This document shows, piece after piece, positions 15,619-37,689 of a stretch of DNA of 64,000 nucleotides. Every line of letters starts with the position of its first letter. The stretch's first letter is position 1. The notes under the pieces were generated by a model. It had not been told where the DNA came from and did no database searches. It saw only the letters and a list, made by a program, of their open reading frames with translations. Origin of the DNA: Candidatus Micrarchaeota archaeon (GTDB taxonomy: Archaea; Micrarchaeota; Micrarchaeia; Norongarragalinales; Norongarragalinaceae); contig JACQQD010000008.1 of the NCBI GenBank assembly GCA_016207165.1, forward strand, positions 112,386 through 176,385, given 5' to 3'. The translations under genes were made by a program, and so were the position numbers.

Positions 15619-15782
15619 AGCAAGACCGGCAAATGAAACAAACCGCTTGGCGGTTTGTTGCATGCTGCAAGCCGTTATCGGCTTGCATCATTTCACGACG
15701 AATAGGCCGGTCTTGCTAGACAGCACAGCACAAATTGCTATGGCAATTTGTGTGGCCTTGCAAATCTTAGCGATTTGCAAGA
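15619..15782. other. Block of five perfect, mutually unrelated palindromes (9-13 bp arms, 3-4 nt spacers)
   Basis: tagcaagaccggc/gccggtcttgcta (15619-15631/15707-15719). aacaaaccgcTTGgcggtttgtt (15638-15660). tgcaagccgTTATcggcttgca (15666-15687). cacaaattgcTATGgcaatttgtg (15730-15753). cttgcaaatcTTAGcgatttgcaag (15758-15782). Confidence 0.7.
15691..15725 (-). promoter_or_regulatory. Conserved intergenic motif 1 (CTGTCTAGCAA-N6-CCTATTCGTCGTGAAAT), copy upstream of GT4
   Basis: Near-identical 34 nt copy at 26000-26033 upstream of HMG-CoA synthase. Both have the same orientation relative to the downstream gene, and both are followed by a TTGCTATA box. Confidence 0.5.
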
Positions 15783-15882
15783 AACCAAGACTATTGGCTT
15801 GGGAAACTTTCTTGGTTTGCTGTATTGATGCCATCGATGTCATTTCGCGTCAAGTTCTGATGTTTTCTTCGATTTATTCGTT

Positions 15883-17136
15883 TCACACGGTGACGGTTTT
15901 TCCTTCGGTTGGAGCCGATGCGTCGAAGCCTTCGGCTTTGAGGTCCGCGACGAGGGCTTTGGCGGCGGATTCGTCGCCGTGCACGCAGAAGACGTGTTTG
16001 GGGTTGACGGCTTTCGCGTAGGCCACCAGCTCGGGGCCGGAGGCGTGCGCCGAGAACTCGAATTGGCTTACCGGGAGGTTGACTTTGTCGGAGTAGCCGT
16101 TGAACCGCACTTTTTGGCCGTTTAGAAGCGCGTAGCCGTTGGATCCAGGGGCTTGGTAGCCGGTTAACAAAACGACGCCGTTTTGGCGGTGGTTCAGAGC
16201 CTTCAAATAGGATAATGCGGGTCCGCCGTCAAGCATTCCGGCGGTGGCGATGATGACTCCGGGTTTTTTGACGGCGGCTTGGCGTTGCGTGTGGGATTCC
16301 ATGAAGCGCGTGCGTTTTACGGCGTCGCGCAAGAGGTTTGGGTTCTTGATGTAGGAGGGAAAATCCAGCATGATGTCGGTCACGGTTTTGGCCATGCCGT
16401 CCAAGTAGAAATCGGCTTGAACGCCTCTAGCTTGTAAAATGCAGAGGATTTCCTGCGCTCGGCCGATGGCGAAAGCGGGAACCAAGACGGTTTGGTTGTG
16501 GTCGACGGCGTCTTGGACTTGGTCGCAGAAGCGTTTTTCGAGTTCGTTTCGGTCGGGGTGGTCGGCTCCGCCGTACGTGCTTTCCGTGACCAGCACGTCG
16601 ACGTCGCTTTTGGGTGGCTTGGCGCCGGCGTGAAGCCGCGTGGGTTCGGGTTTGAAGTCGCCGGTGTACAAGAGCGTTTTCTTGTTTTGGATGAGGACTT
16701 GCGCGGCGCCCAGGATGTGGCCGGCGTCGAAGAACTCGAAGCGGGTGTCTTCGTAGAACGCGTATTGGGCGTTGTAGGGAAGCGGAATGGCGTGTTTGAG
16801 CAGGGTCTTGACGTCTTTGCGGTTGTAGGGTAGCGCTTTCTTGTTTAAAATCGCGATTTTTTCGGAGTCTTCCCACAACAAGTTCACCAAGGGCAATGTG
16901 GGAAAGGTGGCGAAGGCGGGGATGGGGTGGTGTTTGTAGAGGGAGGGCGCGGCGCCGGAGTGGTCCAAGTGGGCGTGGGAGAGAATGAATGCGTCGGCTC
17001 TGATTTTCGAGAAATCCGGCATGCTGTCTTCTTCCCGGATTTTCATGCCCGCGTCCAAGACGATTTTGACGTCGGATTCGACGAGAAACGCGCTTTTGCC
17101 GACTTCTTGGCAGGCGCCGATGAAGGTGAGCTTCAT
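15883..17136 (-). CDS. Beta-CASP/metallo-beta-lactamase RNA-processing nuclease (aCPSF2-like)
   Basis: 417 aa. HAHLDHSG metallo-beta-lactamase motif. Beta-CASP length and architecture. Confidence 0.75.
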   Translation of the reverse strand: MKLTFIGACQEVGKSAFLVESDVKIVLDAGMKIREEDSMPDFSKIRADAFILSHAHLDHSGAAPSLYKHHPIPAFATFPTLPLVNLLWEDSEKIAILNKKALPYNRKDVKTLLKHAIPLPYNAQYAFYEDTRFEFFDAGHILGAAQVLIQNKKTLLYTGDFKPEPTRLHAGAKPPKSDVDVLVTESTYGGADHPDRNELEKRFCDQVQDAVDHNQTVLVPAFAIGRAQEILCILQARGVQADFYLDGMAKTVTDIMLDFPSYIKNPNLLRDAVKRTRFMESHTQRQAAVKKPGVIIATAGMLDGGPALSYLKALNHRQNGVVLLTGYQAPGSNGYALLNGQKVRFNGYSDKVNLPVSQFEFSAHASGPELVAYAKAVNPKHVFCVHGDESAAKALVADLKAEGFDASAPTEGKTVTV

Positions 17137-17191
17137 TCGATTTCCAGAACGGCGGGACTGTATTTAATGCATTGCACGGTTCGTGCCCTTG

Positions 17192-18151: not shown

Positions 18152-19144
18152 CTATTTCAATAGTTCGGCTTTCTTCAAGGCGTTGAGGTCTTTGGATCGC
18201 GTCAGAAACATTGTGGTTTTCAGTTCGTGCTTGTATTTCTGGATGGCTTGCCGCACGCCCGAAACGCCGGCGTGTTGTTGGGCTTTGATGAAGGGGGACG
18301 CGGCGCCAGCCAGGGTGGCGCCCAATCGGATGGCTTTGGCGGCTTCCAACCCGGAGCGAATGCCGCCGGAGGCAATTAATGGGACTTTGACGGCTTTGGC
18401 GCATTGGGCTAGGGCTGAAGCGGTGGGGATGCCAAAGTCCCAGAACACGTCTCCGCTTAATCCGTGGCGGTGGTGTTCCACGGCGGACCAGGACGTACCG
18501 CCGGTGCCGGACACGTCGATGGCTTTCACGCCGGCTTTTTGGAGTTCCTTGGCGATGGTGACGTTGATGCCGGCTCCGACTTCTTTGGCGATGACTGGCA
18601 CCCGGAGGGCGTCACAGGTGTCCGCGATTTTTGCGAGGATTCCGTTCCAGTTCTTGTCGCCTTCGGGTTGCACGGCTTCCTGCAAGGGATTCAGGTGGAT
18701 GCAGAGCGCGTCGGCATTAATGGCGTCCACGAGCCACTGGATTTGCTTGAGGGAGTATTGCTTGAGTTGGTAGGCTCCGATGTTGCCGCATAGGAAGAGG
18801 CCTTTCTGTTTGACGGCGTAGGTTTTGGAAAGCGTGGGGTCCTCCAGCATGGCGCGTTGGCTGCCGACGGCGAAAACGATGCCTTCTTGGGCGCAGGCTT
18901 GCGCGATTTCGGAATTGATTTTTTGGGCGTCGGTATATCCTCCAGTCATGCCGGTGACCATGAATGGCGCTTTGAGGGCGTGGCCTAAAAACGTGGTTTC
19001 CAAGTTGACGGCGTGGAAGTCTTGTTCCGGCAAGGCATAGTAATTGAATCGGATGGCGTCAAAGCCGTTGCTTTGGTGGCCTTGGACGTCTTGGTTCAAG
19101 ACGATGTCGACGTGTTCGCCTTTGCGTTTCTGGGTTTGCTTCAT
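18152..19144 (-). CDS. fni: Isopentenyl-diphosphate delta-isomerase type 2 (FMN-dependent)
   Basis: TIM-barrel IDI-2 motifs (FMVTGMTGG, VSGTGGTSW, ASGGIRSG). Start taken at MKQTQKRK (19144). The longer ORF would overlap the upstream gene. Confidence 0.75.
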   Translation of the reverse strand: MKQTQKRKGEHVDIVLNQDVQGHQSNGFDAIRFNYYALPEQDFHAVNLETTFLGHALKAPFMVTGMTGGYTDAQKINSEIAQACAQEGIVFAVGSQRAMLEDPTLSKTYAVKQKGLFLCGNIGAYQLKQYSLKQIQWLVDAINADALCIHLNPLQEAVQPEGDKNWNGILAKIADTCDALRVPVIAKEVGAGINVTIAKELQKAGVKAIDVSGTGGTSWSAVEHHRHGLSGDVFWDFGIPTASALAQCAKAVKVPLIASGGIRSGLEAAKAIRLGATLAGAASPFIKAQQHAGVSGVRQAIQKYKHELKTTMFLTRSKDLNALKKAELLK

Positions 19145-19160
19145 ATGACGGTTTACTCCT

Positions 19161-20270
19161 TCAGGCTTTTTCAAGGCGTAGGCCGGCGTTGTCGATGGCC
19201 AAGTCAAATACGGCGAGGCCTTGTTCAAGTAAGTGGCTTTTGAGGTTCTCGGCTTTTTCGGTGGATAGGCACAAGGCGGCGATGGAGTCCAGGCCCCCGG
19301 CTCCGGGGCCTTTGGCGACGAAGGCGCCGTGTTTTGGGGCGCCTGAAAGGATTTTTTCAAGTGGCGGGGGTTGGATGGGGGCCCCGCTTTCTTCTCCGAG
19401 TTTTGTGGTGAGGCTCCATCCTTCGTTGAACCACTTCTTGAATTCGTTGAGGTTTTCCGGCGAGAAATCGGTTTGCAGTTCGTCGAGGTACCCCATGGCG
19501 TTGACGTTGGCTTCGTTTAAGCGTTTGACGAGGTCGTGGTATTGTTCGGCGTGCATTTTTTTCCAGGCGTTCACGGTTTTGACCATGGACGTCGTGGACG
19601 CGCTGTCTTTGGGGAAGGTGGCAAAAACGAGTTGGAACAGATCGGGTGTAGCCAACGGCCTAACCAGGTAGTCCCAGGTTTCATCCGCGTTTTTTGGGAA
19701 GGATTCCAGGGTTTCGGGGGTGAAGCGCTGGTATTCGCAGGAGCCGAAACACGCCGCCGCCACGTCGTAGCCTGACCCGATTTTGCCTTGGGCCTGCGCG
19801 TGCGCGGCTTGCGCCACGTGGTGCGTGGTTTTGAGGTCGGAAATGTCGTGGAACGCCAGCAGCCCGTGGGTCATGGCGGCGGTGGCGGCGGCGGAAGAAC
19901 CCAACCCGCTTTTTCCGGCGGTGACGTTGAAGGCCGCATCCGTTCGGGTGTTGAGGTGGAATGGTTTTGGCGTGATGCCTCTGCGTTCCAGGTATTGGAA
20001 TGTTTTTTCGATGGCGGATTGAGCGAACTTGGTTTCCGGCGCGCCGCGTTCCAGTTCCAGTCGCCCGTTTTTCCACTGGGCGTGCGTGTCGACGTGGAAT
20101 TGGGGGATTTGGATGCGGATGGTTTCCGCGGAACTGACTTCCGCGTGCACGCGGGCGGAAACGGTGGACAAGTAACTGGTGTTGCCTTTTTCCAGGACGC
20201 TGTAGCCGCCAAGCCAACCGATTTTTCCGGGGGCGGAAGCTGAAATCATGTGGTTGGAACCTTGGTTCAC
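19161..20270 (-). CDS. Phosphomevalonate kinase (GHMP kinase, ERG8-like)
   Basis: SAPGKIGWLGGYSVLE N-terminal motif and GKSGLGSSAAATAA ATP-binding loop. 4 nt overlap with the upstream MVD gene. Confidence 0.6.
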   Translation of the reverse strand: MNQGSNHMISASAPGKIGWLGGYSVLEKGNTSYLSTVSARVHAEVSSAETIRIQIPQFHVDTHAQWKNGRLELERGAPETKFAQSAIEKTFQYLERRGITPKPFHLNTRTDAAFNVTAGKSGLGSSAAATAAMTHGLLAFHDISDLKTTHHVAQAAHAQAQGKIGSGYDVAAACFGSCEYQRFTPETLESFPKNADETWDYLVRPLATPDLFQLVFATFPKDSASTTSMVKTVNAWKKMHAEQYHDLVKRLNEANVNAMGYLDELQTDFSPENLNEFKKWFNEGWSLTTKLGEESGAPIQPPPLEKILSGAPKHGAFVAKGPGAGGLDSIAALCLSTEKAENLKSHLLEQGLAVFDLAIDNAGLRLEKA

Positions 20271-21331
20271 GTAAAGACGATTCCTTTTGATTGGTTGAAG
20301 GCGTGGGGGATGACGTTTCCGGATTCATCGAGCAGGTGGCCGGTTTCAAGGCGTTTGGGGCCGTTTCCAACGCCGCAGACCAGCGTCTCGGTGACCCCTG
20401 GAATTTCTTCCAGCATTTTTTGGACGGCTCCGGCTTGGTTTTTCGTGGTGTAGACGTGGGCGTTGGGTCCGGCGTCAAAGGTGTACGCCGCCTGGATGCC
20501 GTTGGCGTTAAACTCGTTCACGGCGTGCATGACGTCTTTGGAGTGGTCGTTGAGGTACAAAATCGGGGGCCACGTGTCAAGCATCACGGCGTGCATGTTG
20601 CTGGACTCGCGCATGGTTAATTCGCCGAAGGTTTCAAAGTCTTTGGCTAGAACGGCTTTTTTCATGTCGTGGATGAGTCCGGGCAAGTACGCCAGGCGGG
20701 CTTTGTAGAGCTGGCTTGTGGCCACAGTCTGTTTCATGCCGGCTCGTGACGAGACTTTCTTTTTGGTGGCGTCAACGACGGCAATGACGTTGCGGATTTC
20801 CGGCCAATGCGTTGCCGGAGCGACTTGTTCGGCAAACGAGTCCGAGCCGTCGGCTTTGACGCCTTTCTTCCATTCCACGAATCCTCCCAGAACGGAGCGG
20901 CAGGCGGATCCGGAGCCCAGGCGCGCGAGCATGGAGGTTTCCCGGGGATTTAGTTTTAGTCCGGCGGCCATGGACGCGGCGCAGGAAAGCGCGGCAAGTC
21001 CTGCGGCGCTGGAGGCAAAGCCGGCGGCGGTGGGGAAACAGTTCAACGACGCGATGTGGGCTTTGTCTTGGATTCCGGCTTTTCGGCGGATGACGTCTAA
21101 AAGCTGTAGGCGTTCCGCGGTTTCCTTGTCTGAAAGATCGATTTTTTGGCCGTTGAGCCAGAACGAGTCGGCCTTGAATTTTTTCGAGTAGACGACCGTG
21201 GTGCGGGTCTTGAGGGTCTCGTCCATGGTAAAGGAAAGCGATCCTTCGGTGGGCAGGATGAGTTTCTCGTCGCGTTTGCCCCAGTACTTGACCACGGCAA
21301 TGTTGGGCGTGGCTTCAAAAGTGGCTCTCAT
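20267..21331 (-). CDS. mvaD: Diphosphomevalonate decarboxylase
   Basis: NIAVVKYWGKRD and PTAAGFASSAAG motifs. Start at MRATFEA (21331), 4 nt overlap with the upstream HAD gene. Confidence 0.75.
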   Translation of the reverse strand: MRATFEATPNIAVVKYWGKRDEKLILPTEGSLSFTMDETLKTRTTVVYSKKFKADSFWLNGQKIDLSDKETAERLQLLDVIRRKAGIQDKAHIASLNCFPTAAGFASSAAGLAALSCAASMAAGLKLNPRETSMLARLGSGSACRSVLGGFVEWKKGVKADGSDSFAEQVAPATHWPEIRNVIAVVDATKKKVSSRAGMKQTVATSQLYKARLAYLPGLIHDMKKAVLAKDFETFGELTMRESSNMHAVMLDTWPPILYLNDHSKDVMHAVNEFNANGIQAAYTFDAGPNAHVYTTKNQAGAVQKMLEEIPGVTETLVCGVGNGPKRLETGHLLDESGNVIPHAFNQSKGIVFT

Positions 21332-22020
21332 GGCGTCTTCACGTAGGATAGGATGTCTTGCGGCTTTTTTAAGGTCGTCACGTCTTCGTCGGGAGTCGGC
21401 GGCAATCCGTAGCCCCACTCCGCAAAAAACAATCGGGCGCGGCCTTGCAGGCTTTTCAGGACGCGGGGCATGTCGTCGACGAACCACACGGTTTCTTCCT
21501 TGAGGCTTTCCACTTGCCGTTTTTTGAGTTCGTCGCTGGAGGCCGAGAAGCGGCTGGAGCCTACCACGCGGTCAAAGTAAGGGAACAATTGCTTGGCGGC
21601 GAGGTATTTTTTTAGGCTGGAGTCGTCGCGCGCCGAGACCACGGCCATGCGTGGGCCTTGGTTTTTGAGTTGTTTCAGGGTATCGATGATGCCGGGATAA
21701 ACGGGGTTGTGGGGGAACTGTTTTTCCAGAAGCAAGTCGCGGTGCTTGTGGTAGAGTTCGCGAAGCTCCAGAACGCCGTTTTTTCGCTCCAGGCCGACGC
21801 GGTGGAGGTTTTCGCGGGTGTACGGAACGTGTTGTTGCCGGGCGAAGTACTGGATGAAGAAGTCGGTGGCTTGCACCGCGGTTTTTCGTTCGACTCGGAA
21901 TTGTTTCAGGCTCAAGGGTTCAAGGCCGAATTCTTCCAGCGCCGCGTTGTAGCTGGCAAAGCATTCGTGGACGGTGTCCACCAAGACGCCGTCAAAATCC
22001 CAGGCTAAAAGCATTTGCAA
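21328..22020 (-). CDS. HAD-superfamily hydrolase
   Basis: DxDGVLVDT motif I (WDFDGVLVDT). 230 aa. Co-operonic with MVD/PMK/IDI2. Confidence 0.6.
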   Translation of the reverse strand: MQMLLAWDFDGVLVDTVHECFASYNAALEEFGLEPLSLKQFRVERKTAVQATDFFIQYFARQQHVPYTRENLHRVGLERKNGVLELRELYHKHRDLLLEKQFPHNPVYPGIIDTLKQLKNQGPRMAVVSARDDSSLKKYLAAKQLFPYFDRVVGSSRFSASSDELKKRQVESLKEETVWFVDDMPRVLKSLQGRARLFFAEWGYGLPPTPDEDVTTLKKPQDILSYVKTP

Positions 22021-22054
22021 AAACCCTTAAACCTTTGCGTACAGTTTTCCGTAA

Positions 22055-23101
22055 TTGGTTTGTGGGGGTTGGATTGTTTTTATGGTTCTGGTTTCCGCGT
22101 CGGCGCCAAGCAAGGTTCATTTGGCGGGCGAGCACAGCGTGGTGTACGGGGGTTGGGCGTTGGTGGCGCCGGTGGAAGTGGGTGGCAAACGCAACGCCGT
22201 TTCCCTGGAGAAACGCGGTGGCGGGTTTTGGTTTGGAGGCGACTTGGGTGCTGCTTGGCTTGAAGGCGGGGCCAAGAAGGGCGACGAAGTCTATCACCCC
22301 TTGTTGGACGTGGCCTTGCATGTGGCCGGCAAAACAGGCCGTAGCCTGGACGGATTGAAAGCCACGCTTTCTTGGGCCGGCGCCCCAAGGGGCACGGCGA
22401 ATTCCGCGTCGATTTCCGTGGCGTTGGCTTTGGCGTTGTTCAAGCACTTCGGGAAAAACCCAGGCCAATCCGAGTTGTACGACGCGGGGTTCGTGGGCGA
22501 CAACGCGTACCACGGCGGAAAGAGTTCGGGCGGCGACGTGGCCGCCGTTGTTTCCGATAAGGCCAAGAAGTTCCGGCGCGTGTTCAAGGACGGTGCCGTG
22601 GTGCCGGAGTCGTTGGACGTGGAACTTCACATGCCTCGCGGTACGCAGTTGGTGCTGGCTTCCACCCAAAAAGAAGGCCAGGAACGCTCCTCTACGGCCG
22701 CGCTCATCGAACAGTTTGCCAAGGCGCATGGCGTGTCCAAGAAGCCGGCGGAAATGTCGGATGCCGAACGCCATGCGCTGTTTGACGCGTTTGATGTCGT
22801 GGTGGAGAAAATCGCTTCCTTGTGCGGGAGGGACGCGTCGCCGGAGGCGTTGGGAGCGGCGTTGGATGAAAACCATTCCTTGTTGGAAAGCGTGTCCACG
22901 CCCGCCATTGACCAAACCCTTTCCGTGGCGAAGCAGGCGGGGGCGTTGGGTGGGAAACTCATTGGCGCCGGGGGCGCGGGTAGCGCGTTGATCGTCTTGG
23001 TGCCGGACGAGAAGCTGAAAACCGTCCAGTCGGCGGTGTCGGATCTTGGCTTTGAGTCGTGGCCCGTTGGCTTGGCGAAGCGCGGGCCGGCCTTGGATTA
23101 A
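22055..23101 (+). CDS. mvk: Mevalonate kinase
   Basis: SAPSKVHLAGEHSVVYG N-terminal motif and GGKLIGAGGAGS. Start could be 22082 (MVLVSASAP). Confidence 0.7.
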   Translation: MVCGGWIVFMVLVSASAPSKVHLAGEHSVVYGGWALVAPVEVGGKRNAVSLEKRGGGFWFGGDLGAAWLEGGAKKGDEVYHPLLDVALHVAGKTGRSLDGLKATLSWAGAPRGTANSASISVALALALFKHFGKNPGQSELYDAGFVGDNAYHGGKSSGGDVAAVVSDKAKKFRRVFKDGAVVPESLDVELHMPRGTQLVLASTQKEGQERSSTAALIEQFAKAHGVSKKPAEMSDAERHALFDAFDVVVEKIASLCGRDASPEALGAALDENHSLLESVSTPAIDQTLSVAKQAGALGGKLIGAGGAGSALIVLVPDEKLKTVQSAVSDLGFESWPVGLAKRGPALD

Positions 23102-23117
23102 CTTTTTTTGGGTTGGC

Positions 23118-23516
23118 TTAGTGAACGCGTTGAATGCGTTCGACGTGGTCAAAGTCCGAGTCAAACGAGAGGATTTCTCGGAGGCCTCGTTTGTTGGTGG
23201 CATGGACGCTGAGGGCGTCGGAGAGGCTGAATCGGCCGTATTTCTTCATCAGTTTGCCGGCGGCTTCCAGGTCTTGGACGCTTACAGATTCAATGGCGAT
23301 GTTTTTCGCGTTCAGAAATGCCTGCAGTCCTTCGTGGGCGGCTTGCGGCCCGTCCCGGCTGAAAAGATACGTTACGGCTTCTTCGATGACGTGCGTGGTG
23401 ACGACGAGGCGTTCATTGTCTTTGACGATGTCCTCGATGAGTTCTTTTGCTCGGTCATGATGGGCGTCGCTTTTCCGGAACAATGCGATGAAAAGCGATG
23501 CATCGGCGGTCTTCAT
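23118..23516 (-). CDS. vapC: VapC-like PIN-domain toxin
   Basis: 132 aa. PIN acidic residues. Immediately follows the small antitoxin-like gene. Confidence 0.65.
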   Translation of the reverse strand: MKTADASLFIALFRKSDAHHDRAKELIEDIVKDNERLVVTTHVIEEAVTYLFSRDGPQAAHEGLQAFLNAKNIAIESVSVQDLEAAGKLMKKYGRFSLSDALSVHATNKRGLREILSFDSDFDHVERIQRVH

Positions 23517-23795
23517 TTAATCCCCGTAAAGCACCTGATGTAGATCTTCCGCGGCATTGGAGGGCGGCCCGCTCTTGACGATGCCTGCAAAGTCCCTCAA
23601 GGTTTTTTTCTTTCCAGCGGTCAACCCCTGGTTTTCAAGGGTGAACGCCAATGCCTCCCCCACGACTTCCGCGTCGGAGACCTTGGCTTCCCGCTGAAGA
23701 ATCATTTTAGCCTTTAATTGATGCAGCTTGCGCATGACGGGCTCCGGCACGCGAAGTGAAACGAGGTGACCCAAGAGAAAACCACCACGAGTCAT
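23517..23795 (-). CDS. VapB-like antitoxin
   Basis: About 90 aa. Position immediately upstream of the PIN gene. Confidence 0.4.
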   Translation of the reverse strand: MTRGGFLLGHLVSLRVPEPVMRKLHQLKAKMILQREAKVSDAEVVGEALAFTLENQGLTAGKKKTLRDFAGIVKSGPPSNAAEDLHQVLYGD

Positions 23796-23811
23796 ATATT
23801 TTTTATACTTT

Positions 23812-24072
23812 TTATACTTTTTGGTATTTTTGACGCGCCGTTTTCAGGTCGTATCGTTTGCCGAAACCCGGTACCCGAACGGCTTTGGTCTTTCGGATTT
23901 TTTCCAGTTTTTTTAGGTATTCCGGCCGGATTTCCCGTTCCATGAGGGTTTGCCCGTATTCGGCCACCACGTAATTGAGTGCTTCGTCTTTCCGCTTGAA
24001 GCCATGCAAGGCCTTGACGACGTTCAACACGCGATCTGTTTTTTCATCCAAATGGACGACGGCTTGTTTCAT
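23812..24072 (-). CDS. Small antitoxin-like/hypothetical protein
   Basis: 86 aa, basic C-terminus. Confidence 0.3.
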   Translation of the reverse strand: MKQAVVHLDEKTDRVLNVVKALHGFKRKDEALNYVVAEYGQTLMEREIRPEYLKKLEKIRKTKAVRVPGFGKRYDLKTARQKYQKV

Positions 24073-24130
24073 GTTATTTCACGTAATCTCATTTTATTTC
24101 ATGTAATAAAACGGTTTCGGTGGCTGGTGG

Positions 24131-24562
24131 ATGGGGTGGTGGAACGGTTGTCGAAACGCGTTCCGCCGCTGGATAACGTTTATTTTAGCCAATGTCTTGA
24201 ATGGTTTCATGGACTGTGTCTTGTGTTCGGAGGTTCAGGCCGTCGTTGCTGCCGGCGACCATTACTGGGAGCCCCTGCCGGATTGCGTCAATGCGTTGGA
24301 TGTTTTCGGGTATTTCGGCGATGACTTGGATTGCGTTTATCTTAAGAAGTGTCCGGCGTGCAAGACGTATTTCGCGGAGTACCACGCGGACCATTTTGAG
24401 TCCGGTGGCGCGGTAAGCCAACGCATTGAAAAAATCGATGCCGAGAAAGCCCTCGAAATCATCAAGAAAGTGATGACGAAGGTTGAGGGTGCAGAGTGGC
24501 TTAAGTCTAAGTATTCGTTGGCCAAGCTGCAAAAAGAATTGAGGAGTTTAGAGAAGTCGTAG
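24131..24562 (+). CDS. Hypothetical protein with Cys-x2-Cys ... CPAC putative zinc ribbon
   Basis: Motifs CVLC and CPAC. True start may be MDCVLC at ~24206. Confidence 0.3.
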   Translation: MGWWNGCRNAFRRWITFILANVLNGFMDCVLCSEVQAVVAAGDHYWEPLPDCVNALDVFGYFGDDLDCVYLKKCPACKTYFAEYHADHFESGGAVSQRIEKIDAEKALEIIKKVMTKVEGAEWLKSKYSLAKLQKELRSLEKS

Positions 24563-24579
24563 CACACGTCGTGGTGGGT

Positions 24580-25845
24580 TTAACCGTCCAAGAGTTCTTT
24601 GGCGCGCTTTACGTTGACGTTTTTCTCTTTGGCCATGATGGCGGCGATGCGGTCAATGTCGTCGCCGGTTGCCCCGGCTTGCACGGCAATGTTGGCGGCG
24701 TGCAACTTCATGTGACCTTGCTGGATACCTGTCGTCGCCAAAGCGCGCATGGCCGCAAAGTTCTGCGCCAATCCAACGGATGCCAGGATTTCGCCGAGTT
24801 CTTTTGCGCTTGAAACCCCCAGAATCTTGAGGTTGGTTTTGGCCATGGGGTGGGTGCGCGTCGCGCCGCCGACGACTCCAACGGCCATGGGCAACTCGAT
24901 TTCTCCGGTCAAGTCGCCGTCCTTGGTTTTCCAGTATCGCGTGAGGGTAGTGTATTGGCCGGTTTTCATGGCGTACACGTGTCCGCCGGCTTCCATGGCG
25001 CGCCAGTCGTTGCCTGTCGCCAAAACGACGGCGTCCATGCCGTTGAAGATGCCTTTGTTGGCGGTGCAGGCGCGGTACGCGTCGTTGGCGGCGAAGGCGT
25101 AGGCGTCAAGCATCGCTTCCACGATGGCTTCTCCGTTGAAAGCGCCTTTGGTGCTTTCCGCAAGGGCTTCTTTCGTCCAAGTGGCATGCGCTTTGGCGGT
25201 GCGGTGCACGGCCAAATTCGAGAGGATGCGGAGGCGGGCTTTGGCGCCGGTGATTTGCTCGATTTTGGGGCTGATGGCTTCGCACATGGTGTTCACGGCG
25301 TTGGCGCCCATGGCGTCCTGGACGTTGACCAGCAAATGCAAGATGAGCATGTCGCCGCGGCTGGTTTTAATCACCCGGCTTTCCAGGTCCACGGCTCCAC
25401 CGCCGCGGGAGACCATGACGGGGTCTTTTTCGTTGGCGGTTTCAAGCAATTCGCCCTTGTGTTTTTTGACGGCGGCTTGGGCTTTACGGAAATCCGGGAC
25501 GTGCACCAACTGGATTTGGCCGATCATGATGGGTTGCGTGGTGGATGCCGTGAATCCTTTTGGGAGGCACAATTTGGCGGCGTGGCTGGCGGCCGCCACT
25601 ACCGAGGGCTCTTCGACGACCATGGGGACGAGGCGTTCTTTGCCGTTGACTTTGAAGTGGTCGGCGATTCCCAACGGCAAAGGGTAGGCGCCCACCACGT
25701 TTTCGATCATGCGGTTGGCCGTGGATTCGTCCAATCCCCCAAACGTCTTGAGGCGCGCGAGGTCCTCGGCGTCCAATTTCGCCAGTGTGGCGACTTCCTC
25801 GGCGCGTTCTTGGGGTGACTTGTTCCTAAACTCTTTGGAGAGCAT
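24580..25845 (-). CDS. hmgA: HMG-CoA reductase, class I
   Basis: 421 aa. ENVVGAYPLPLGIA and GGATRTHPMA motifs. Confidence 0.85.
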   Translation of the reverse strand: MLSKEFRNKSPQERAEEVATLAKLDAEDLARLKTFGGLDESTANRMIENVVGAYPLPLGIADHFKVNGKERLVPMVVEEPSVVAAASHAAKLCLPKGFTASTTQPIMIGQIQLVHVPDFRKAQAAVKKHKGELLETANEKDPVMVSRGGGAVDLESRVIKTSRGDMLILHLLVNVQDAMGANAVNTMCEAISPKIEQITGAKARLRILSNLAVHRTAKAHATWTKEALAESTKGAFNGEAIVEAMLDAYAFAANDAYRACTANKGIFNGMDAVVLATGNDWRAMEAGGHVYAMKTGQYTTLTRYWKTKDGDLTGEIELPMAVGVVGGATRTHPMAKTNLKILGVSSAKELGEILASVGLAQNFAAMRALATTGIQQGHMKLHAANIAVQAGATGDDIDRIAAIMAKEKNVNVKRAKELLDG

Positions 25846-25954
25846 GAAACCGTATTGGAGTCCTGGGGTTTCAAAAGGCTGCCGGGTGTTGGGCGATTGA
25901 CGAAGGGTCTACGGGTTTTTATACGCGGATTGTCCAGAAAACGCTTGAACTGAA

Positions 25955-26001
25955 TTACAGTAAACCACGAATGTTTCCCGACAAAATAGTCGTGGTTTAC
26001 T
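25955..26001 (+). promoter_or_regulatory. Palindrome cagtaaaccacga-N19-tcgtggtttactg containing conserved motif 2 (CCCGACAAAATAGTCG)
   Basis: 13 bp perfect arms. Motif 2 recurs at 37647-37664 in the same orientation relative to the downstream gene. Confidence 0.5.
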
Positions 26002-26033
26002 GTCTAGCAAACTCCGCCTATTCGTCGTGAAAT
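26000..26033 (+). promoter_or_regulatory. Conserved intergenic motif 1, copy upstream of HMG-CoA synthase. A TTGCTATA box lies ~20 nt before the ATG.
   Basis: Matches the reverse complement of 15691-15725. Confidence 0.5.
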
Positions 26034-26069
26034 TTGCGGGGTTTGCTATACTGGAAGGTTTATTGTTCA

Positions 26070-28306: not shown

Positions 28307-28717
28307 ATGAGGGAAGCCTTGCCTTTGATGTGGCGGAACATTGCGGAACGCTATAATTTGATTGGCACGCACTGCGCCACCTGCGGCTCGAATTACTATC
28401 CCCAGCGAAAAGTCTGTCCCAAGTGCCGTCGGAAAGGTCAGCTTGAGGGCCGCGTGTTCCCTGGAAAAGGCGTGATTTTGTCGTCAAGCCAGGTCTTCGT
28501 TTCTCCGAAGGGCTTCGAGCACGAAACGCCGTATTGGCTGGCCGTCGTTGAATTGGACAACCACGCTAAATTGTTGACGCAAGTCGTGGATTCCGCGGAT
28601 GACCAAGTCAAGGCCGGCGCGCGGGTGGAAGTGGTTTTCCGCAAGATCTACGAAGACAGCCACGAGGGAGCCATTGCCTACGGCTACAAATTCAAAGTCG
28701 TGCCCGGCGGCAAGTAG
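28307..28717 (+). CDS. DUF35 OB-fold/zinc-ribbon protein (thiolase-HMGCS complex partner)
   Basis: CATCGSNYYPQRKVCPKC zinc ribbon. Third gene of the conserved archaeal operon. Confidence 0.7.
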   Translation: MREALPLMWRNIAERYNLIGTHCATCGSNYYPQRKVCPKCRRKGQLEGRVFPGKGVILSSSQVFVSPKGFEHETPYWLAVVELDNHAKLLTQVVDSADDQVKAGARVEVVFRKIYEDSHEGAIAYGYKFKVVPGGK

Positions 28718-29477: not shown

Positions 29478-30395
29478 TCACCTGGATAACGCTTGCAAGT
29501 CAAGATATTGGTCGTTGACCGTGCACCCTCGGCCGTCCACCCACTTGCAGAAATTGATTCCCAACGCGCCTCCTTGTCCGGTGCTACGGCATTGGGCCTC
29601 CGGAATTTTCTGGCATTGCTTCTCCAGTTGCGCAATGGCGGGATCGTTGTTGCGCACGGTTTCCGGAGTTGCAGCGTATGCGCCGGGGTTGGTGCAACAT
29701 ACTTCTTGGGGCGACTGGCAACTTTGGAATCCGTTGAATGCCTGAGCGATGGCTGGCACGATGTACGCGTCGCTTCCGCCGAATTGGCGAGCCAGTTTCT
29801 TGACTTTCTCTTGGAATTGCCCGTCCCTGACGATGTCCTTGGCTTCCGTCATTTTCCTCCAGCCTGGTTCTTGAGAGGAAGTGGGGCATTGGGTGACGAA
29901 GCACTGCCCGCTTCTGTGTTCCAGCGTTACGTCAACAATGCCGCGGTAGGGCCACGTTTTTGGGTTATTGGAGTCATACAATCGGGGCTCGTAGCCGCGG
30001 TGCGTGATGACGTGGCCTGTGGACAATAGGTTCAGGTCGCCCACGCAAGCCCCTCGGCCTCGAATGGCGGGCGGAGCCGGCTGGGGTTTGGGTGGCGCCC
30101 CTTTCACGGTGACGACTTGGTTGTTCGTGCCCAAAATTTTTCGTTCGTCGTCTTGCTGGTAGGCTACGGTGGTAATAACGAAATATTTGCCTGGAGTTAC
30201 CTGCAAATTCACTTGCTTTGCCGGTGGGCCTCGCTCCGAATATTGTCGTTTATACTCGGCATCCGCAAAATAGGGCACGTTAAACTTGTTGGCCACGGTT
30301 TGGCGGTCGCTGAATCGCTGGACGACGATGTCGATGGTTGGGGCAACCGGGCCGGTGTAGTCGATGCGTGTGGTGACTACAACTATAGTCTCCAC
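29478..30395 (-). CDS. Cys-rich extracellular domain protein. Possibly the C-terminal part of a fusion with 30280..31872 through a frameshift.
   Basis: 305 aa with 10 Cys. Overlaps the upstream ORF by 116 nt in a different frame. The upstream ORF ends in a Pro/Thr-rich linker. Confidence 0.4.
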   Translation of the reverse strand: METIVVVTTRIDYTGPVAPTIDIVVQRFSDRQTVANKFNVPYFADAEYKRQYSERGPPAKQVNLQVTPGKYFVITTVAYQQDDERKILGTNNQVVTVKGAPPKPQPAPPAIRGRGACVGDLNLLSTGHVITHRGYEPRLYDSNNPKTWPYRGIVDVTLEHRSGQCFVTQCPTSSQEPGWRKMTEAKDIVRDGQFQEKVKKLARQFGGSDAYIVPAIAQAFNGFQSCQSPQEVCCTNPGAYAATPETVRNNDPAIAQLEKQCQKIPEAQCRSTGQGGALGINFCKWVDGRGCTVNDQYLDLQALSR

Positions 30396-31872
30396 TGGAT
30401 TTTACGCTAACACTTCGGAGTCGGCCTTCGCCTGGCAGCGACGACGCAGGTTCGGGTTCTTGAGGACCGGAAACCTGAACTTCCTTGGGCGTTTCGGTGG
30501 CCTCTTTGGGCGTTGTGGCCGGCGGCTCCGGCAAGTCCAGGTCCGCGGTTTGGCGGATGGTCAAGACCACGTATTGTTTGGGGATGCGTTCCAGCCATGG
30601 CGCGTCCAAGGGGTTGTCACCGTTTTTGACTTGGTCTTTGTAGGCGGCCGCAATTTGTTCACGGGTGGGCCGGCTGAACATGAATTGGAGGGCGATTTTT
30701 TCCTTGGCTTCTTTTTCGCCAAGCTTAGCGCCGGCGGCCAAGCGGTCGGCGCTGGGAAGCGTCGACGTTTTTCCGTTGGAAAGCGCGACTTGAGAGACGA
30801 TGTCGTTGCCTTGGAACGTGTTTTGCCCGCCGACGTTGAACGAATGGCCCCAAAAGTCCTTGAGCTTGAACCGGATGCCTCCGTCCTGCGAGGCGTCAAT
30901 GATTTCAATGCGGTAACCTTGGCCGAATGTCAACGTCACCGGCGCGTTGGCGATTTGGCTGACGTCCAGCAAGTATTGGGCGGTTTGTTGGGGTTTCACG
31001 TGGTGGGCGACGGCGGCCAGTTCCGGTGCGGCAAAGCGCTTGGGCGTTGGCTGGTAGCCCTTGGATTCGCCGCGGAAGACTTCCGGGTACGCGTCCATGA
31101 ACACGGCGTAGTCGCCGTTGGGCGCGTATTGGAGTTGCGTTCGGCCACTCCACGAGAAAGCGGGCGACGTTCCCGTCGGTCTTCGGAGTCGTCCGGGGTT
31201 GACGCTGCGCCGGATTTCCAGCGAGTCGAAACGCGGAGCGGATCCGGCTATGGACTGGAAAGCGGCTTCGTCGAAAATCACGGGTTTGGCCATGGCCACG
31301 ATTTTGGCGTTGTCGGCTTGGGCGTCAAGCCACCCGCCGCGGACCACGTCCGTGCTGTCGTAGCGGAGCGCAACCGAAGGGATGTGAAACAAAGGGTAGA
31401 ACTGGCCATACGCCTTGGTGACTTCCTGTTTCAGTTGGGCGTCCGTTTTCGCGTTTAGTTCTTTGTCGATTCGCTCGGATTTGACGAAGTCGCTTGGGAA
31501 AGAGAGGGCGGTTTTCGGGGTCTTGGATTGCCAGACGCTGGCGTCGTTGCCGGCGGCACGGATTTCAATGACTACGACGAATTCACTGCTTTTCGGGGAC
31601 GCCAAAGGGGTGGCCTTGATCAGTTCGTCTTTGGATGCGTAGTTTTCCAAGGACAAGTCGGCTTGGATGTTCACGAAGTTTCTTTGTTCCGCCGACGTTT
31701 TTTCAACCAAAACGAATGCGCCATCGGTTTTTTCGACGGCGTCCACCGAATCCAGGGTGTAGGTTCCCCCGTCTGAAAGCGGGTGGAACGAGATGCTGAC
31801 CGGCGCCGCGGATGCGGCGGACGCAAAAAGAATGAGGACGGCCAGGATGTGCCAAGCGGACCGATCGTGCAT
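30280..31872 (-). CDS. Secreted hypothetical protein with C-terminal PT-rich linker
   Basis: Signal peptide MHDRSAWHILAVLILFASAASAAP. 530 aa. Confidence 0.45.
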   Translation of the reverse strand: MHDRSAWHILAVLILFASAASAAPVSISFHPLSDGGTYTLDSVDAVEKTDGAFVLVEKTSAEQRNFVNIQADLSLENYASKDELIKATPLASPKSSEFVVVIEIRAAGNDASVWQSKTPKTALSFPSDFVKSERIDKELNAKTDAQLKQEVTKAYGQFYPLFHIPSVALRYDSTDVVRGGWLDAQADNAKIVAMAKPVIFDEAAFQSIAGSAPRFDSLEIRRSVNPGRLRRPTGTSPAFSWSGRTQLQYAPNGDYAVFMDAYPEVFRGESKGYQPTPKRFAAPELAAVAHHVKPQQTAQYLLDVSQIANAPVTLTFGQGYRIEIIDASQDGGIRFKLKDFWGHSFNVGGQNTFQGNDIVSQVALSNGKTSTLPSADRLAAGAKLGEKEAKEKIALQFMFSRPTREQIAAAYKDQVKNGDNPLDAPWLERIPKQYVVLTIRQTADLDLPEPPATTPKEATETPKEVQVSGPQEPEPASSLPGEGRLRSVSVKSSGDYSCSHHTHRLHRPGCPNHRHRRPAIQRPPNRGQQV

Positions 31873-33260: not shown

Positions 33261-33267
33261 GGGGCGT

Positions 33268-34542: not shown

Positions 34543-35493
34543 ATGGACTTTGATTTTGACGTGTTGATTGTCGGCGCGGGCGCCGCGGGCTTGACGGCGG
34601 CTTTGTACACGTGCCGGAAAAACCTCAAGACGGCCATCGTCTCCATTGACGTGGGGGGGCAGACGAATTTGACGTCCAACATCGAGAACTATCCTGGGGT
34701 TGAACCCATGCATGGCGCGGTTTTGATGCAGAAGTTCCTCAAGCAAGCGCAGGGCGTGGGCGCCCAACTGATTTCCGGCAAAGTCGGCAGGATTGAAAAA
34801 ATCGAGAACGGTTTTCGCGTCAACCTCAAGGACGGCCAAGCGTTTACGTCCAAATGCGTGCTGTTGGCTTTTGGCAAAGTCCCGCGCACCCTGGGCATTC
34901 CTGGGGAGGACCACTTTTTTGGGAAAGGCGTGTCGACTTGCGTCACGTGCGACGGGCCCCTGTTTCGGGGTAAGGACGTCGTGGTGGTGGGCGGCGGCAA
35001 TTCCGCCATTGAAGGCGCTTTGGAACTGGCGGAAATCGCGAACAAGGTTTATTTGGTGCACCGCCGGGACGCGTTTAGGGCGGACGAAATCACGGTGCAG
35101 AAGCTGAAGTCCCACAAGAACATGGAGTTGGTCTTGAATTCGGCGGCGGTGGAAGTCAGAGGCCAAAAATTCATTGACACGGTGGTCGTTCAAGACGTCA
35201 ACACCAAGGCCACGCGCGACTTGGCCGTCAAAGGCATGTTTTTGGAGATTGGCTTCATCATGGACATTTCCATGCTGGAGGGGTTGAACGTGAACGTCAA
35301 CGCCAAGAAGGAGATCTTATCGGATTCCGTGACGTGCCACACCAACGTTCCTGGATTGTTTGCCGCCGGGGACTGCACGGCGATTCCTTTCAAGCAGACC
35401 GTCATTTCGGCGGGCGAGGGCGCCAAGGCGGCGTTGGAAATCCATCGTCACATGACTGGAGCGAAAGGCATTGCCCTGGATTGGGACCATTAA
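34543..35493 (+). CDS. trxB: Thioredoxin-disulfide reductase
   Basis: FAD motif VLIVGAGAAGLTAALY, CVTC redox-active disulfide, and NAD(P) motif VVVGGGNSA. Confidence 0.8.
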   Translation: MDFDFDVLIVGAGAAGLTAALYTCRKNLKTAIVSIDVGGQTNLTSNIENYPGVEPMHGAVLMQKFLKQAQGVGAQLISGKVGRIEKIENGFRVNLKDGQAFTSKCVLLAFGKVPRTLGIPGEDHFFGKGVSTCVTCDGPLFRGKDVVVVGGGNSAIEGALELAEIANKVYLVHRRDAFRADEITVQKLKSHKNMELVLNSAAVEVRGQKFIDTVVVQDVNTKATRDLAVKGMFLEIGFIMDISMLEGLNVNVNAKKEILSDSVTCHTNVPGLFAAGDCTAIPFKQTVISAGEGAKAALEIHRHMTGAKGIALDWDH

Positions 35494-37310
35494 GCGGCTT
35501 CGTGGTGCAGGGCTTTTGGCAGTAAAAGCGTCAGGGCGGCGTCTTTTCCGTGATCCAGTTCCCGTGCCATGTGTTCCAACACCGTTCGCGGGTCGTCCTT
35601 ATCGGTACGGAGGTTTCGCCAGTGCCGGCGCCAGCCTTTACCCAGTTTGAGTTGGACGGCGTTTTCCTGCAGTTCTTGCGCGGTCAGGTTGACGCCGGAA
35701 CGCCTTGTCAATTCTGTTGCCAGAAATTCGTAGGCCTGTTCCCTGCTTTGGGGGAGCTTGGGCACCGGTAAACTTGCCGCTTTAGCTCCGGCGAGGTCCT
35801 TGTACTGGCTTTGCAGGCGCTCCCGTTCGCTCTGACCGGAAATGCCGAGGCTGTACAGCAGCTTGTTGAGGTTGTGCCATGTATCGGCTTTTGCGCCGGG
35901 ACCCTTGGGCGGTTTTCTCACCCGGTTTCCAAGAGAGTCAATCCACCAGTCTTTGTCTTCGAGGATCAGGTTGCCGGTGTTGTTGACCACGGCTTTGGCG
36001 ACGTGTTGCGCAAAGCCGTCCAGTCTGTCTTGGGTGAAGTGGGGGTCCACCTGGGCTTTGCGGCGAAGCAATAGTTCGGTGACTTTGATGAAGTCGTAGC
36101 CGGCGTTGGGGTGGTGTTCATGGACTTGGGCAAGCGGGACGCCCAATTCGGCGGCCACGGCTTTTTGGGCGGCGGCTTGGAACGCGTTGGTGGGCGGCGC
36201 TGGCGTTTTTGCGGGGGCCGGGCCGGGCGTCAACGTGATTTGAGGCGGCTTGCCGCCGGTGGTGTGCGTGAACAGTGGCGTCGGGGCTTCAGCCCCGGTC
36301 GCGACTGCGGCTGGCGTGGGCTTGGCAAAAGATTGTTCGATTTGGTCCGCGATGAAGCCAGGGGTTTTCAGCGCACCCAGCATGATGACGGCGCCGATGG
36401 CGGCGGCTTTGGCTCGTTCTTTCCAGAGAAACGGCGCCGGTTTTTCCGCGAAGCGTCGCATGGCTGTGTGTTTGTCTTTTCGGCGCAAAAGCTTGAGTTC
36501 CTCGATGCCGTGGAGCATCTGGCGCGGGGTGGCGGTGGCTTTGGAAAGGATGTCGTTCGTCATTTGGGCAGGAAAGTGCGAGAGCATGTATTCCCTCACC
36601 AAAAACTCGTTCACGTCGCCTTGGACGCGCCGCAGTTCTTGTTTGTACTCGTCCAAGGCGGCGCCTTTGACTTCAGGACTCCAGTTCGGCTCGGCGCGTA
36701 TGGCGTGGCTCAGCTTGTTTTGTGCGGTGTCGCCTTGCTCGGCGGCTTTCAGGTGTCCTTGAGCGACGTGGAGTTGTTGTTCCAGGAGGCGTTTCATCTC
36801 GTCGGGATGAACGTCGCTGGGTAATCTCCATTCCCGGTTGCCTACGCGGATGAAGTTGCCTCCCAGAAGCACTAGCGGGTCTTTTCTTCCGCTGATTCTC
36901 CTCTGGCGCTCCATGAAGGCGCTGAGCCTTGCCAGAAATCCGCGGAACATGAAGTTCGGTCCCAAGTCTCGGAATTGGTGCTGCAAGCGATTTTCGATGT
37001 CGGCGTCAACTTTTTCTTGGAGCTCAGCTTCAAGCGCTCGCGTTTTTTCCTCGAATTCCAGGAGTTTCGGGTTGGTGCGCCGCAATGCGTTTTCATGTTC
37101 TCTTTCGACCGCCGGCGCGTACCCGTCGCCCAGCATGGTTTGAACCCGGGTTTGGATTTCTTCGTGAAGGGCGCGTTCTTCGTGGGCGCTCAGCCGTGTT
37201 TTGATGCCTAAGACGGCGGGAGTCCACGTCTGCTCTCCCGCCCATCGCATGAGTTTCCTAGCGTGGTTTCGGAATGCTTCCAGGAACGTCATTTTTTCTT
37301 CCTCGGCCAC
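35490..37310 (-). CDS. Hypothetical bitopic membrane protein (606 aa). Cytoplasmic coiled-coil N-domain, one TM, Pro/Ala-rich linker, extracytoplasmic C-domain.
   Basis: TM AAAIGAVIMLGALK. Linker PTPAAVATGAEAPTP..PAPAKTPAPP. Confidence 0.45.
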   Translation of the reverse strand: MAEEEKMTFLEAFRNHARKLMRWAGEQTWTPAVLGIKTRLSAHEERALHEEIQTRVQTMLGDGYAPAVEREHENALRRTNPKLLEFEEKTRALEAELQEKVDADIENRLQHQFRDLGPNFMFRGFLARLSAFMERQRRISGRKDPLVLLGGNFIRVGNREWRLPSDVHPDEMKRLLEQQLHVAQGHLKAAEQGDTAQNKLSHAIRAEPNWSPEVKGAALDEYKQELRRVQGDVNEFLVREYMLSHFPAQMTNDILSKATATPRQMLHGIEELKLLRRKDKHTAMRRFAEKPAPFLWKERAKAAAIGAVIMLGALKTPGFIADQIEQSFAKPTPAAVATGAEAPTPLFTHTTGGKPPQITLTPGPAPAKTPAPPTNAFQAAAQKAVAAELGVPLAQVHEHHPNAGYDFIKVTELLLRRKAQVDPHFTQDRLDGFAQHVAKAVVNNTGNLILEDKDWWIDSLGNRVRKPPKGPGAKADTWHNLNKLLYSLGISGQSERERLQSQYKDLAGAKAASLPVPKLPQSREQAYEFLATELTRRSGVNLTAQELQENAVQLKLGKGWRRHWRNLRTDKDDPRTVLEHMARELDHGKDAALTLLLPKALHHEAA

Positions 37311-37606
37311 CGGCTAGCGATTTCATCGGATTGGGCAATCAATTGCCTGACTTCGTTTTGGAGTCTTATCACTTCCTTTTCTTGCTCTACTTGGGCCTGG
37401 ACACTCGTTTTTGCCAACTCCATCATGCGGCGGATTTCAAGGCCTGTATGGTCGTTTCCCGCTTGTTTGCGGATGTCTTGGCACACGGCTTCTGCGATTT
37501 GTCGAGCCGTTTCAGGATGGATGTGGTGTCTTTCGGGCAATTTTTTCTCGAGGAATGCCTGCAGGCCCGTCAGGCTTGCTTCCAACCGTTGCCTCGTTGT
37601 TTCCAT
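37289..37606 (-). CDS. Small coiled-coil protein (105 aa)
   Basis: Charged heptad-like sequence. Overlaps the downstream 606-aa gene. Confidence 0.4.
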   Translation of the reverse strand: METTRQRLEASLTGLQAFLEKKLPERHHIHPETARQIAEAVCQDIRKQAGNDHTGLEIRRMMELAKTSVQAQVEQEKEVIRLQNEVRQLIAQSDEIASRWPRKKK

Positions 37607-37630
37607 GATAGCAGATATTTAGGGAAACGA

Positions 37631-37689
37631 CTTTTTTATAGCAATCCCCGACTATTTTGTCGGGTCACTTTCTTGGTTTGCTGTATTGA
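37631..37689 (-). promoter_or_regulatory. Promoter region of the 105-aa/606-aa operon: motif 3, motif 2 and a GCTATAAAAAA box
   Basis: Motif 3 ACTTTCTTGGTTTGCTGTATTGA at 37667-37689 is identical to 15807-15829. Motif 2 cccgactattttgtcggg at 37647-37664. TATA-like box ~30 nt before the ATG at 37606. Confidence 0.5.

Follow-up and report, generated by a model that had tools for sequence, protein, structure and literature searches.

The 64,000-nt window examined here, a stretch of contig JACQQD010000008.1 from a groundwater metagenome-assembled genome (MAG) of a Candidatus Micrarchaeota archaeon (DPANN; NCBI proteins MBI43609xx, found by exact protein look-ups), carries copies of a short palindromic repeat at three intergenic sites, designated A, B and C. 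These copies probably belong to a family of non-coding palindromic repeats in Micrarchaeota, similar to MITEs (transposable elements of the miniature inverted-repeat type) and repetitive extragenic palindromes (REPs), rather than to a set of operators. The element is small (94-nt dimer, 46-nt unit) and contains no open reading frame (ORF). A preliminary description of the same DNA had reported three separate motifs recurring upstream of three unrelated operons. The recurrence of the motifs at these sites is real, and the counts lie far above chance expectation; the motifs, however, are not separate, but represent the arms and loops of one palindromic unit of ~46 nt.

The structure of the unit was derived from an alignment of 15 units, taken from sites A and B of the window and, outside it, from the loci L001, L002, L004, L005, L006, L008 and L011. 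The unit (46–47 nt) has the consensus CTAGCAAACCnnGA, a loop of 18–19 nt, and TCnnGGTTTGCTAT. Its stem of 13–14 bp comprises a conserved base (TAGCAA...TTGCTA) and a variable distal part, and the loop is conserved and A/T-rich. Usually two units are joined head to tail into a 94-nt dimer, TA-CAG...(H1)...CTGTC-TAG...(H2)...TTGCTA-TA, in which motif 3 of the preliminary description is the 5' arm of the first hairpin (H1), motif 2 forms the loop of H1, motif 1 comprises the 5' arm plus loop of the second hairpin (H2), and TTGCTATA is the 3' arm of H2. Read as its reverse complement, the H1 loop A(A/T)GTTTCCCGACAAAATAG is matched by the H2 loop CTATTCGTCGTGAAATTT at about 14 of 18 positions when compared by eye. 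Hence, because H1 and H2 are homologous and the core of motif 1 resembles the motif 2 loop in reverse complement, the three motifs are one repeat seen in different registers. The spacing from ACAG to TTGCTATA is constant (86 nt at eight loci), and every full copy ends in the terminal inverted repeats TA(C/T)AGCAA... and ...TTGCTATA.

Site B (25955..26050, plus strand) represents the canonical 94-nt dimer flanked by TA, as seen in its sequence, in its fold and in the matches to a covariance model of the unit (R1). H1 occupies positions 25957-26003 (stem ACAGTAAACCACGA/TCGTGGTTTACTGT, 19-nt loop ATGTTTCCCGACAAAATAG) and H2 positions 26004-26049 (stem TAGCAAACTCCGC/GCGGGGTTTGCTA, 18-nt loop identical to the H2 loop given above). 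The two R1 matches score 59.2 and 59.4 bits, and the predicted DNA fold has an energy of -28.3 kcal/mol (z = -8.7). Since the dimer is followed directly by TA, TTGCTATA (26043-26050), which 19 nt separate from the HMG-CoA synthase start codon (ATG at 26070), is simply the 3' arm of H2 and not a separate promoter box.

The copies at the two other sites are rearranged. Site A (15616..15825, minus strand) is, by its sequence, an expanded dimer with four nested mini-hairpins: HP1 (15757-15781) and HP2 (15729-15752) are nested in the 3' arm of H1 (15777-15823), and HP3 (15666-15687) and HP4 (15637-15659) in the loop of H2, whose 5' arm (15706-15718) is followed by the motif 1 core (15690-15706) and whose 3' arm lies at 15618-15630, with TTGCTATA at 15616-15623, all on the minus strand. 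Perfect hairpins of at least 9 bp number five at site A and 17 in the whole window (~3.7 expected). The DNA fold of site A is very stable (-67.9 kcal/mol, z = -12.7); in it, HP1 and HP2 are enclosed by paired ACAGCA/TGCTGT. The same expanded architecture recurs in L002, a locus of another genome. Adjacent to it, just past the stop codon of the beta-CASP gene, a degenerate remnant was recognised by eye (15826..15882, minus strand); its GAATAAATCGAA is a weak match, likewise seen by eye only, to the loop of a supernumerary L004 unit. Site C (37637..37686, minus strand) is, again by its sequence, a single hybrid unit, in which the 5' arm and loop of H1 (ACAGCAAACCAAGA AAGTGACCCGACAAAATAG) are joined to a 3' arm of H2 of the site B type (TCGGGGATTGCTAT). 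This arrangement corresponds to the dimer minus ~46 nt; the R1 match reaches 29.2 bits, and only 9 of the 14 outer stem pairs are kept. Dimerisation, the nesting of mini-hairpins as at site A and internal deletions as at site C have probably produced what was earlier perceived as a mosaic. No copies beyond sites A–C were found when the window was scanned with R1.

As to the individual motifs, the core of motif 1 (CCTATTCGTCGTGAAAT) is present exactly at 15690-15706 (minus strand) and 26017-26033 (plus strand), compared with an expectation of 0.11 with up to three mismatches. The 18-mer core of motif 3 was correctly assigned to sites A and C (exact at 15806-15823 and 37667-37684, both on the minus strand), but a third copy with three mismatches at site B (25957-25974, plus strand) had been overlooked. 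Its 23-mer form is indeed identical at 15806-15828 and 37667-37689, the first coordinate having originally been shifted by 1. Motif 2 (CCCGACAAAATAGTCG) occurs exactly at 25977-25992 (plus strand; formerly placed at 25974-25989, a shift of 3) and 37649-37664 (minus strand), and the full 18-nt palindrome of motif 2 is found at site C only. TTGCTATA is present in the 64-kb window exactly three times, once per site, at 15616-15623 (minus strand), 26043-26050 (plus strand) and 37637-37644 (minus strand), with 0.25 occurrences expected. The observation that all copies in the window keep the same orientation relative to the downstream gene holds.

The 15 units align as a single hairpin family, in which 91% of the stem cells are paired and 9 of the 14 pairs display compensatory double changes. 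The covariation score of 0.564 was reached by none of 500 shuffles (0.187 for the shuffled alignments), and the slid controls showed pairing of only 30–43%. Stem mismatches counted over 25 non-redundant units, three of which are mis-registered through indels, comprise 10 G.T and 10 A.C; an impression of wobble pairs on the sense strand, by which an RNA strand might have been called, was dropped after this count. Since G.T and A.C mismatches are equal in number and the palindrome is symmetric, the constraint appears to act on the DNA and not on an RNA fold. The arms co-vary and are complementary on both strands, which points in the same direction.

The latter result bears directly on the idea that the repeat is a structured RNA, either a cis-regulatory leader or 3' element or a two-hairpin small RNA gene. 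The covariation-supported stems and the very low z-scores of the folds would be in line with it, as would the co-orientation of the window copies with the downstream genes and a TATA box at 25917-25924, which would put site B in the leader of the HMG-CoA synthase (HMGCS) gene. However, the mismatches favour neither strand, and Rfam gave nothing for the repeat: with gathering thresholds applied to the window and permissive E-values to sites A and B, the sole match was an intron-containing tRNA elsewhere. Furthermore, the number of units varies from 1 to 4, nested insertions occur, the loops are found in either orientation, and the unit is not surrounded by a conserved promoter or terminator. 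One copy is antisense to both of its neighbours, another lies between convergent genes, and orthologous leaders lack the element. An RNA function thus seems quite unlikely.

Evidence for mobility comes from L040, a relative with an HMGCS 90% identical to that of the window and with the same divergent arrangement of the HMG-CoA reductase (HMGR) and HMGCS genes. The HMGR/HMGCS spacer measures 131 nt in L040 and 224 nt in the window; the gap of ~93 nt coincides with the site B element, and the flanks are ~88% identical. The site B copy may therefore be regarded, most simply, as a lineage-specific insertion. No unit was detected in 75 kb of L040, L041 and four further relatives (HMGCS ~80% identical), and in five relatives (L040, L042–L045) the orthologous spacer lacks the element. 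Of the two explanations offered in the preliminary description, pieces of a small mobile element is the one supported by the data, namely by presence and absence at an orthologous site, dispersed copies, nested and deleted copies, and repeated targeting by insertion sequences (IS; see below). All full copies have TA on both sides, T|TA(C/T)AGCAA ... TTGCTATA|A, with T-rich sequence next to the 5' end and A-rich sequence next to the 3' end. In addition, an independent assembly of the same organism (L055, a Logan contig of 18,400 bp) ends inside site A (~15644), which is consistent with a repeat-induced assembly break.

One must bear in mind that several observations weigh against a mobile origin. 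A target-site duplication is unproven: the single empty site (L040) reads gaatCAtct, that is, CA despite the TA at both ends of the filled site, and the TA is inseparable from the element itself, so a duplication of TA cannot be claimed. Only one filled/empty pair is available, a deletion in the relative being formally possible; in L041 the gene order after the beta-CASP gene differs, so that site A gave no second pair, and the comparison of the site C island with L040 yielded no further one. Nor did a cognate transposase emerge: the window encodes none, none with matching ends was found, and no RAYT (Y1 transposase) gene is present in the ~300 kb examined. The window has three sites in its 64 kb, and the 75 kb examined from close relatives have none. 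Finally, conservation of the loops equals that of the stems and so exceeds the need of a passive transposon, which may mean a host function, and near-perfect stems of differing sequence could reflect selection for a hairpin useful to the host.

Such considerations lead to the notion of REP/BIME-like palindromes which spread long ago and are now maintained by the host as sites for nucleoid, topoisomerase or other proteins, as insulators or as stabilisers of transcript ends. The loops and stem bases are indeed highly conserved across genomes whose genes are beyond blastn detection, the stems are near-perfect, the copies are strictly intergenic, and in four of five tandem contexts they are co-oriented with the genes. 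Host maintenance nevertheless seems unlikely, given the lack of the repeat in 75 kb of close relatives and in the orthologous spacer of L040, the persistence of deleted and nested copies (sites A and C), the mixture of divergent, tandem, convergent and antisense contexts, and the lack of a known candidate binding protein.

Beyond the window, 185,579 species-representative genomes were scanned for the exact pattern, which turned up four copies, every one of them in JACPGT01, a Micrarchaeota MAG other than that of the window, and one chance match; a scan of metagenomes added copies on several groundwater contigs. The coding flanks of the window and JACPGT01 could not be aligned by blastn, and the elements themselves are 77–94% identical. 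R1 revealed arrays of up to four units (L004), and in L008 a 15-kb stretch has three sites, some of whose stems consist of new, covarying sequences; at position 7105 of L008, an H1-type loop is inverted relative to its flanks. The multiple dispersed copies characteristic of MITEs are thus seen in the three sites of the window, at least four in JACPGT01 and three in 15 kb of L008, and the insertion polymorphism in the filled site of the window and the empty one of L040; the H1 and H2 loops form opposite-orientation dimers like those of REP/REPIN sequences. On viral contigs, the motif 3 pattern had no matches; the 24 matches to the motif 1 16-mer were all discarded as chance occurrences in coding sequence (TIRREI) lacking the hairpin context.

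In other Micrarchaeota the repeat adjoins genes of very different functions, mostly without relation to lipids or the envelope: a 5S rRNA gene with its own TATA box (L006), Fe/Mn superoxide dismutase, the small subunit of ribonucleotide reductase (in a convergent context), a class V aminotransferase/2-hydroxyacid dehydrogenase pair, DUF333, Fic and serine-metabolism genes. The copy at position 3004 of L008 is antisense to both of its neighbours, a DegT aminotransferase and a methyltransferase gene. The co-orientation observed in tandem contexts is not significant. In L001, the stop codon of the upstream GT28 (MurG-like) gene consists of the first bases of the repeat (...TTA CAG TAA, 6209-6230); the insertion has therefore remodelled the 3' end of this gene, which adds to the signs of mobility.

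These contexts are difficult to reconcile with the leading proposal of the preliminary description, an operator set through which a transcription factor would co-regulate lipid and envelope operons. The three window sites do precede the GT4 glycosyltransferase gene, the HMGCS operon and an operon of unknown function in the same orientation, motif 2 is palindromic, and one JACPGT01 copy has a GT28 glycosyltransferase gene on one side and an LPG-synthase TM gene on the other. However, the neighbours elsewhere are unrelated, start codons follow at anything between 9 nt and more than 180 nt, and covarying half-sites of 13–14 bp are unlike DNA recognition by a single factor. Moreover, the same mevalonate promoter lacks the element in the five relatives mentioned above, and the other glycosyltransferase and mevalonate genes of the window have no copy. 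A shared operator set therefore appears highly improbable.

The promoters of the window follow a simple rule, an 8-bp A/T box (TTTAAATA-like), 22–27 nt and ATG, which is the pattern of leaderless mRNAs. TTGCTATA occurs inside the element only and was discarded as a general promoter, this role belonging to the TTTAAATA-like boxes. At site C, CTATAAAA is followed after 26 nt by the ATG of the 105-aa gene (37606) and fits the rule. At site B, the distance of 19 nt is 3–4 nt too short and the box is weak (CTATAC); a canonical TATA box, TTTTTATA, is present in the HMGR/HMGCS spacer at 25917..25924 (plus strand) and is conserved in the element-free L040. The start site predicted for this box is ~25948, and if it fires rightward, the site B element would, going by the spacing only, be located in the HMGCS 5' leader. 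At site A, the element ends ~190 nt upstream of the GT4 start, beyond the gene's own TATA box (CTTTAAAT, 15457..15464, minus strand), which fits the rule, being 23 nt upstream of the probable start at 15433; this start (MRILML..., the 370-aa NCBI model) is the most likely one, rather than 15523. The genes downstream of the copies in L004, L005 and L006 (5S rRNA) also have canonical boxes of their own, and in L001 the ATG lies 9 nt past TTGCTATAA. Measured from TTGCTATA, the start codon is thus 9 nt (L001), 19 nt (site B), 30 nt (site C) or ~180 nt (GT4) away, with no fixed position. Hence, the element is not the promoter, and the earlier description of it as promoter-carrying is plausible at site C only, doubtful at site B and at odds with the separate boxes at site A, L004, L005 and L006. 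As far as this comparison goes, the element would be at most an occasional promoter donor, as are Correia elements (PMC2649163).

The base of the hairpin is also marked by the insertion sequences mentioned above. At least five IS1111-type insertions are located exactly at the unit base, (T)AG|CAA, with transposase identities of 55–100%. In L011 (1-1557), an IS encoding a DEDD/Transposase_20 transposase breaks a dimer at GTCT-AG-CAAAC, with AG on both sides; in L047, one dimer is bracketed by two IS copies (92% transposase identity), and in L049, L050 and L054, IS copies (55% identity) are situated between two units. Most of the IS copies in L011 and L047–L054, contigs of Micrarchaeota type outside the window, sit at the base of a hairpin repeat. 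The transposases contain the PF01548 and PF02371 domains and have 643 homologues at E <=1e-40; the left and right ends measure ~50 and ~290 nt, respectively, with 11-bp subterminal repeats, GAAAAGCCGCC/GGCGGCTTTTC. By their domains, end lengths, subterminal repeats and target match, these ISs belong to the IS1111 group of the IS110 family (criteria of PMC11208160). The right end includes a variable segment of 7–8 nt which, compared by eye, equals the element's own left target flank in four variants, GACCCTGCT-[AGTCTAG/TTTATAG/TCTATAG/CTTATAG]-ATTCGCGC (L011 1-1557, L047, L048 and L049–L054); judging from the sequence, this segment looks like a bridge-RNA target guide. The IS1111 ends are unrelated to those of the repeat. 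Bacterial IS110/IS1111 elements home to REPs in a similar manner (PMC11208160, PMC12288879), and the targeting is an independent mark of the hairpin base as a conserved multi-copy sequence.

If the repeats are indeed MITE/REP-like, their copies would have been inserted into intergenic DNA as non-autonomous mobile elements of the MITE, REP or Correia type, presumably by a trans-acting enzyme. That both ends invariably carry TA suggests a TA target of the IS630/Tc1 kind, and an NTAC 5' flank would fit IS200/IS605-like chemistry. The DNA-level constraint might stem from a recombinase recognising the hairpin or its symmetric ends, or from arm-to-arm correction. The outward end, ...TTGCTATA(AAA) or TTGCTATAAAA, could become an archaeal TATA box where the flank is A-rich and a gene lies ~25 nt away, as at site C; elsewhere, the element would only add hairpins to leaders and spacers. 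A bolder interpretation, which seems rather doubtful, holds that the units are the substrate of an undescribed DPANN system propagating or maintaining DNA hairpins, and serve as portable TATA boxes and as safe landing pads for bridge-RNA-guided IS1111 elements. It draws on the perfect copy-specific stems, the flip-flopping loops and the units nested in one another, and, if correct, would imply a three-layer arrangement of parasites and host in a genome of ~1 Mb.

Among the known systems, the Correia elements of Neisseria (CREE/NEMIS) are similar in many respects: they are non-coding, ~100–150 nt long, intergenic, bounded by inverted repeats and begin with TATAG..., their presence varies among strains, and they can have outward promoters at their ends, hairpins in transcripts and deletion and duplication variants (PMC2649163). 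Correia elements also have a duplicated target, and promoters arise at their ends (PMC2649163). They are, however, bacterial, with sigma-70 promoters and sites for IHF and RNase III. In the Micrarchaeota element, two short hairpins form the dimer, the loops are conserved and the stems covary; a duplication of TA is unproven for it, and its possible promoter is an archaeal TATA box. The REP/REPIN/BIME sequences share the short extragenic palindromes occurring singly, as opposite-orientation dimers and as mosaics with further short motifs (PMC3733652, PMC3116915), the subfamily stems which differ yet stay complementary, and the role of favoured IS110-family targets (PMC11208160, PMC12288879). 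In contrast to REPs, which span 20–40 nt with loops of 4–5 nt, the Micrarchaeota unit has 46–47 nt, a conserved loop of 18–19 nt and the ends TATAG/CTAG...CTATA, and lacks the GTAG/CGTC tag of the REP definition (PMC3733652). REP families are reported from bacterial phyla only (PMC3733652); the host here is archaeal.

MITEs are known in archaea including DPANN, and a 2024 census reports them at high density in some DPANN genomes (PMC11602168). Archaeal MITEs, e.g. the SM elements of Sulfolobus, are likewise small, non-autonomous intergenic repeats, but a typical MITE has an interior that is not palindromic and a parent IS that can be recognised. Searches of the full text of papers and of Rfam brought up no account of this family, the DPANN MITE catalogue of PMC11602168 lying outside the comparison. 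The attC sites of integrons resemble the repeat: they are imperfect palindromes, conserved at the base and variable, with covariation, in the distal stem, they are read as folded DNA, and they serve as IS1111 targets. Cassette arrays and an integrase are absent here, however, the copies being 10 kb apart among core genes such as those of the mevalonate pathway, and the terminal consensus is GCAA/TTGC, compared with AAC/GTT in attC. Integron attC sites, ORB boxes of replication origins, CRISPR and diversity-generating retroelements were all set aside on grounds of architecture and spacing.

A regulatory-looking set of motifs in a DPANN genome would thus be selfish or repeated DNA, and the inference of regulons from such motifs would be misleading. 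Tiny symbiont genomes would also share a repeat ecology of the bacterial type, with assembly breaks, remodelled spacers, the occasional donation of a TATA box and the landing of RNA-guided IS110/IS1111 elements. The elements might serve as markers of recent genomic change between strains of Micrarchaeota, and they offer natural target/guide pairs for archaeal bridge recombinases.

With regard to the genes around the three sites, site A has a beta-CASP/MBL gene on one side and the GT4 gene on the other; the interval between the element and GT4 (15433-15615) contains short ORFs only, e.g. that of a 32-aa basic peptide starting at 15597. Site B lies in the spacer between the divergent HMGR gene and the HMGCS/thiolase/DUF35 operon. 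Both belong to a mevalonate-pathway cluster (18152-28717) which also includes an FMN-dependent dehydrogenase (probably type 2 IDI), a GHMP kinase, a diphosphomevalonate decarboxylase-like gene and a 403-aa protein of unknown function, and in which the repeat is restricted to the HMGR/HMGCS spacer. The HMGCS, thiolase and DUF35 genes abut or overlap in the window genome, whereas in relatives with ~80% identical HMGCS they are separated by spacers; A-rich, low-complexity spacers of 200–280 nt were noted in L042 (3212-3409 and 4577-4830) and L044 (12279-12556). Site C is located between a 586-aa gene and a 105-aa/606-aa gene pair, none of which has a Pfam match and all of which are singletons. 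It falls inside one (35490-40052) of two regions, the other being 29478-31872, where hypothetical genes differ from or exceed those of L040, and which is variable between the window and this relative.

Several further features of the window were noted apart from the repeat. A sequence of ~105 nt is found three times within 579-2807 (spacing 1046–1078 nt, 73–82% identity), and these repeats are probably small paralogous genes in tandem, for which Pfam has no match. A giant protein of 1860 aa (7193-12775) has PP2C phosphatase and FHA domains at its C-terminus and no Pfam match in the first ~1400 residues. The tRNA detected by Rfam (51393-51500, 108 nt), presumably intron-containing, was missed by ARAGORN. 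Next to it, region 51486-55661 is low in GC (47–50%), encodes PIN and Fic proteins and contains several direct repeats of 56–124 nt spaced 1.7–2.3 kb apart; it could be an integrated element or a set of duplicated toxin modules. Finally, a perfect 11-bp inverted repeat, TTAACCCCACA...TGTGGGGTTAA, surrounds the TATA box GGTTTAAATAAATC of the Fic-domain gene (55484-55526) and, judging by its position, may be an operator.

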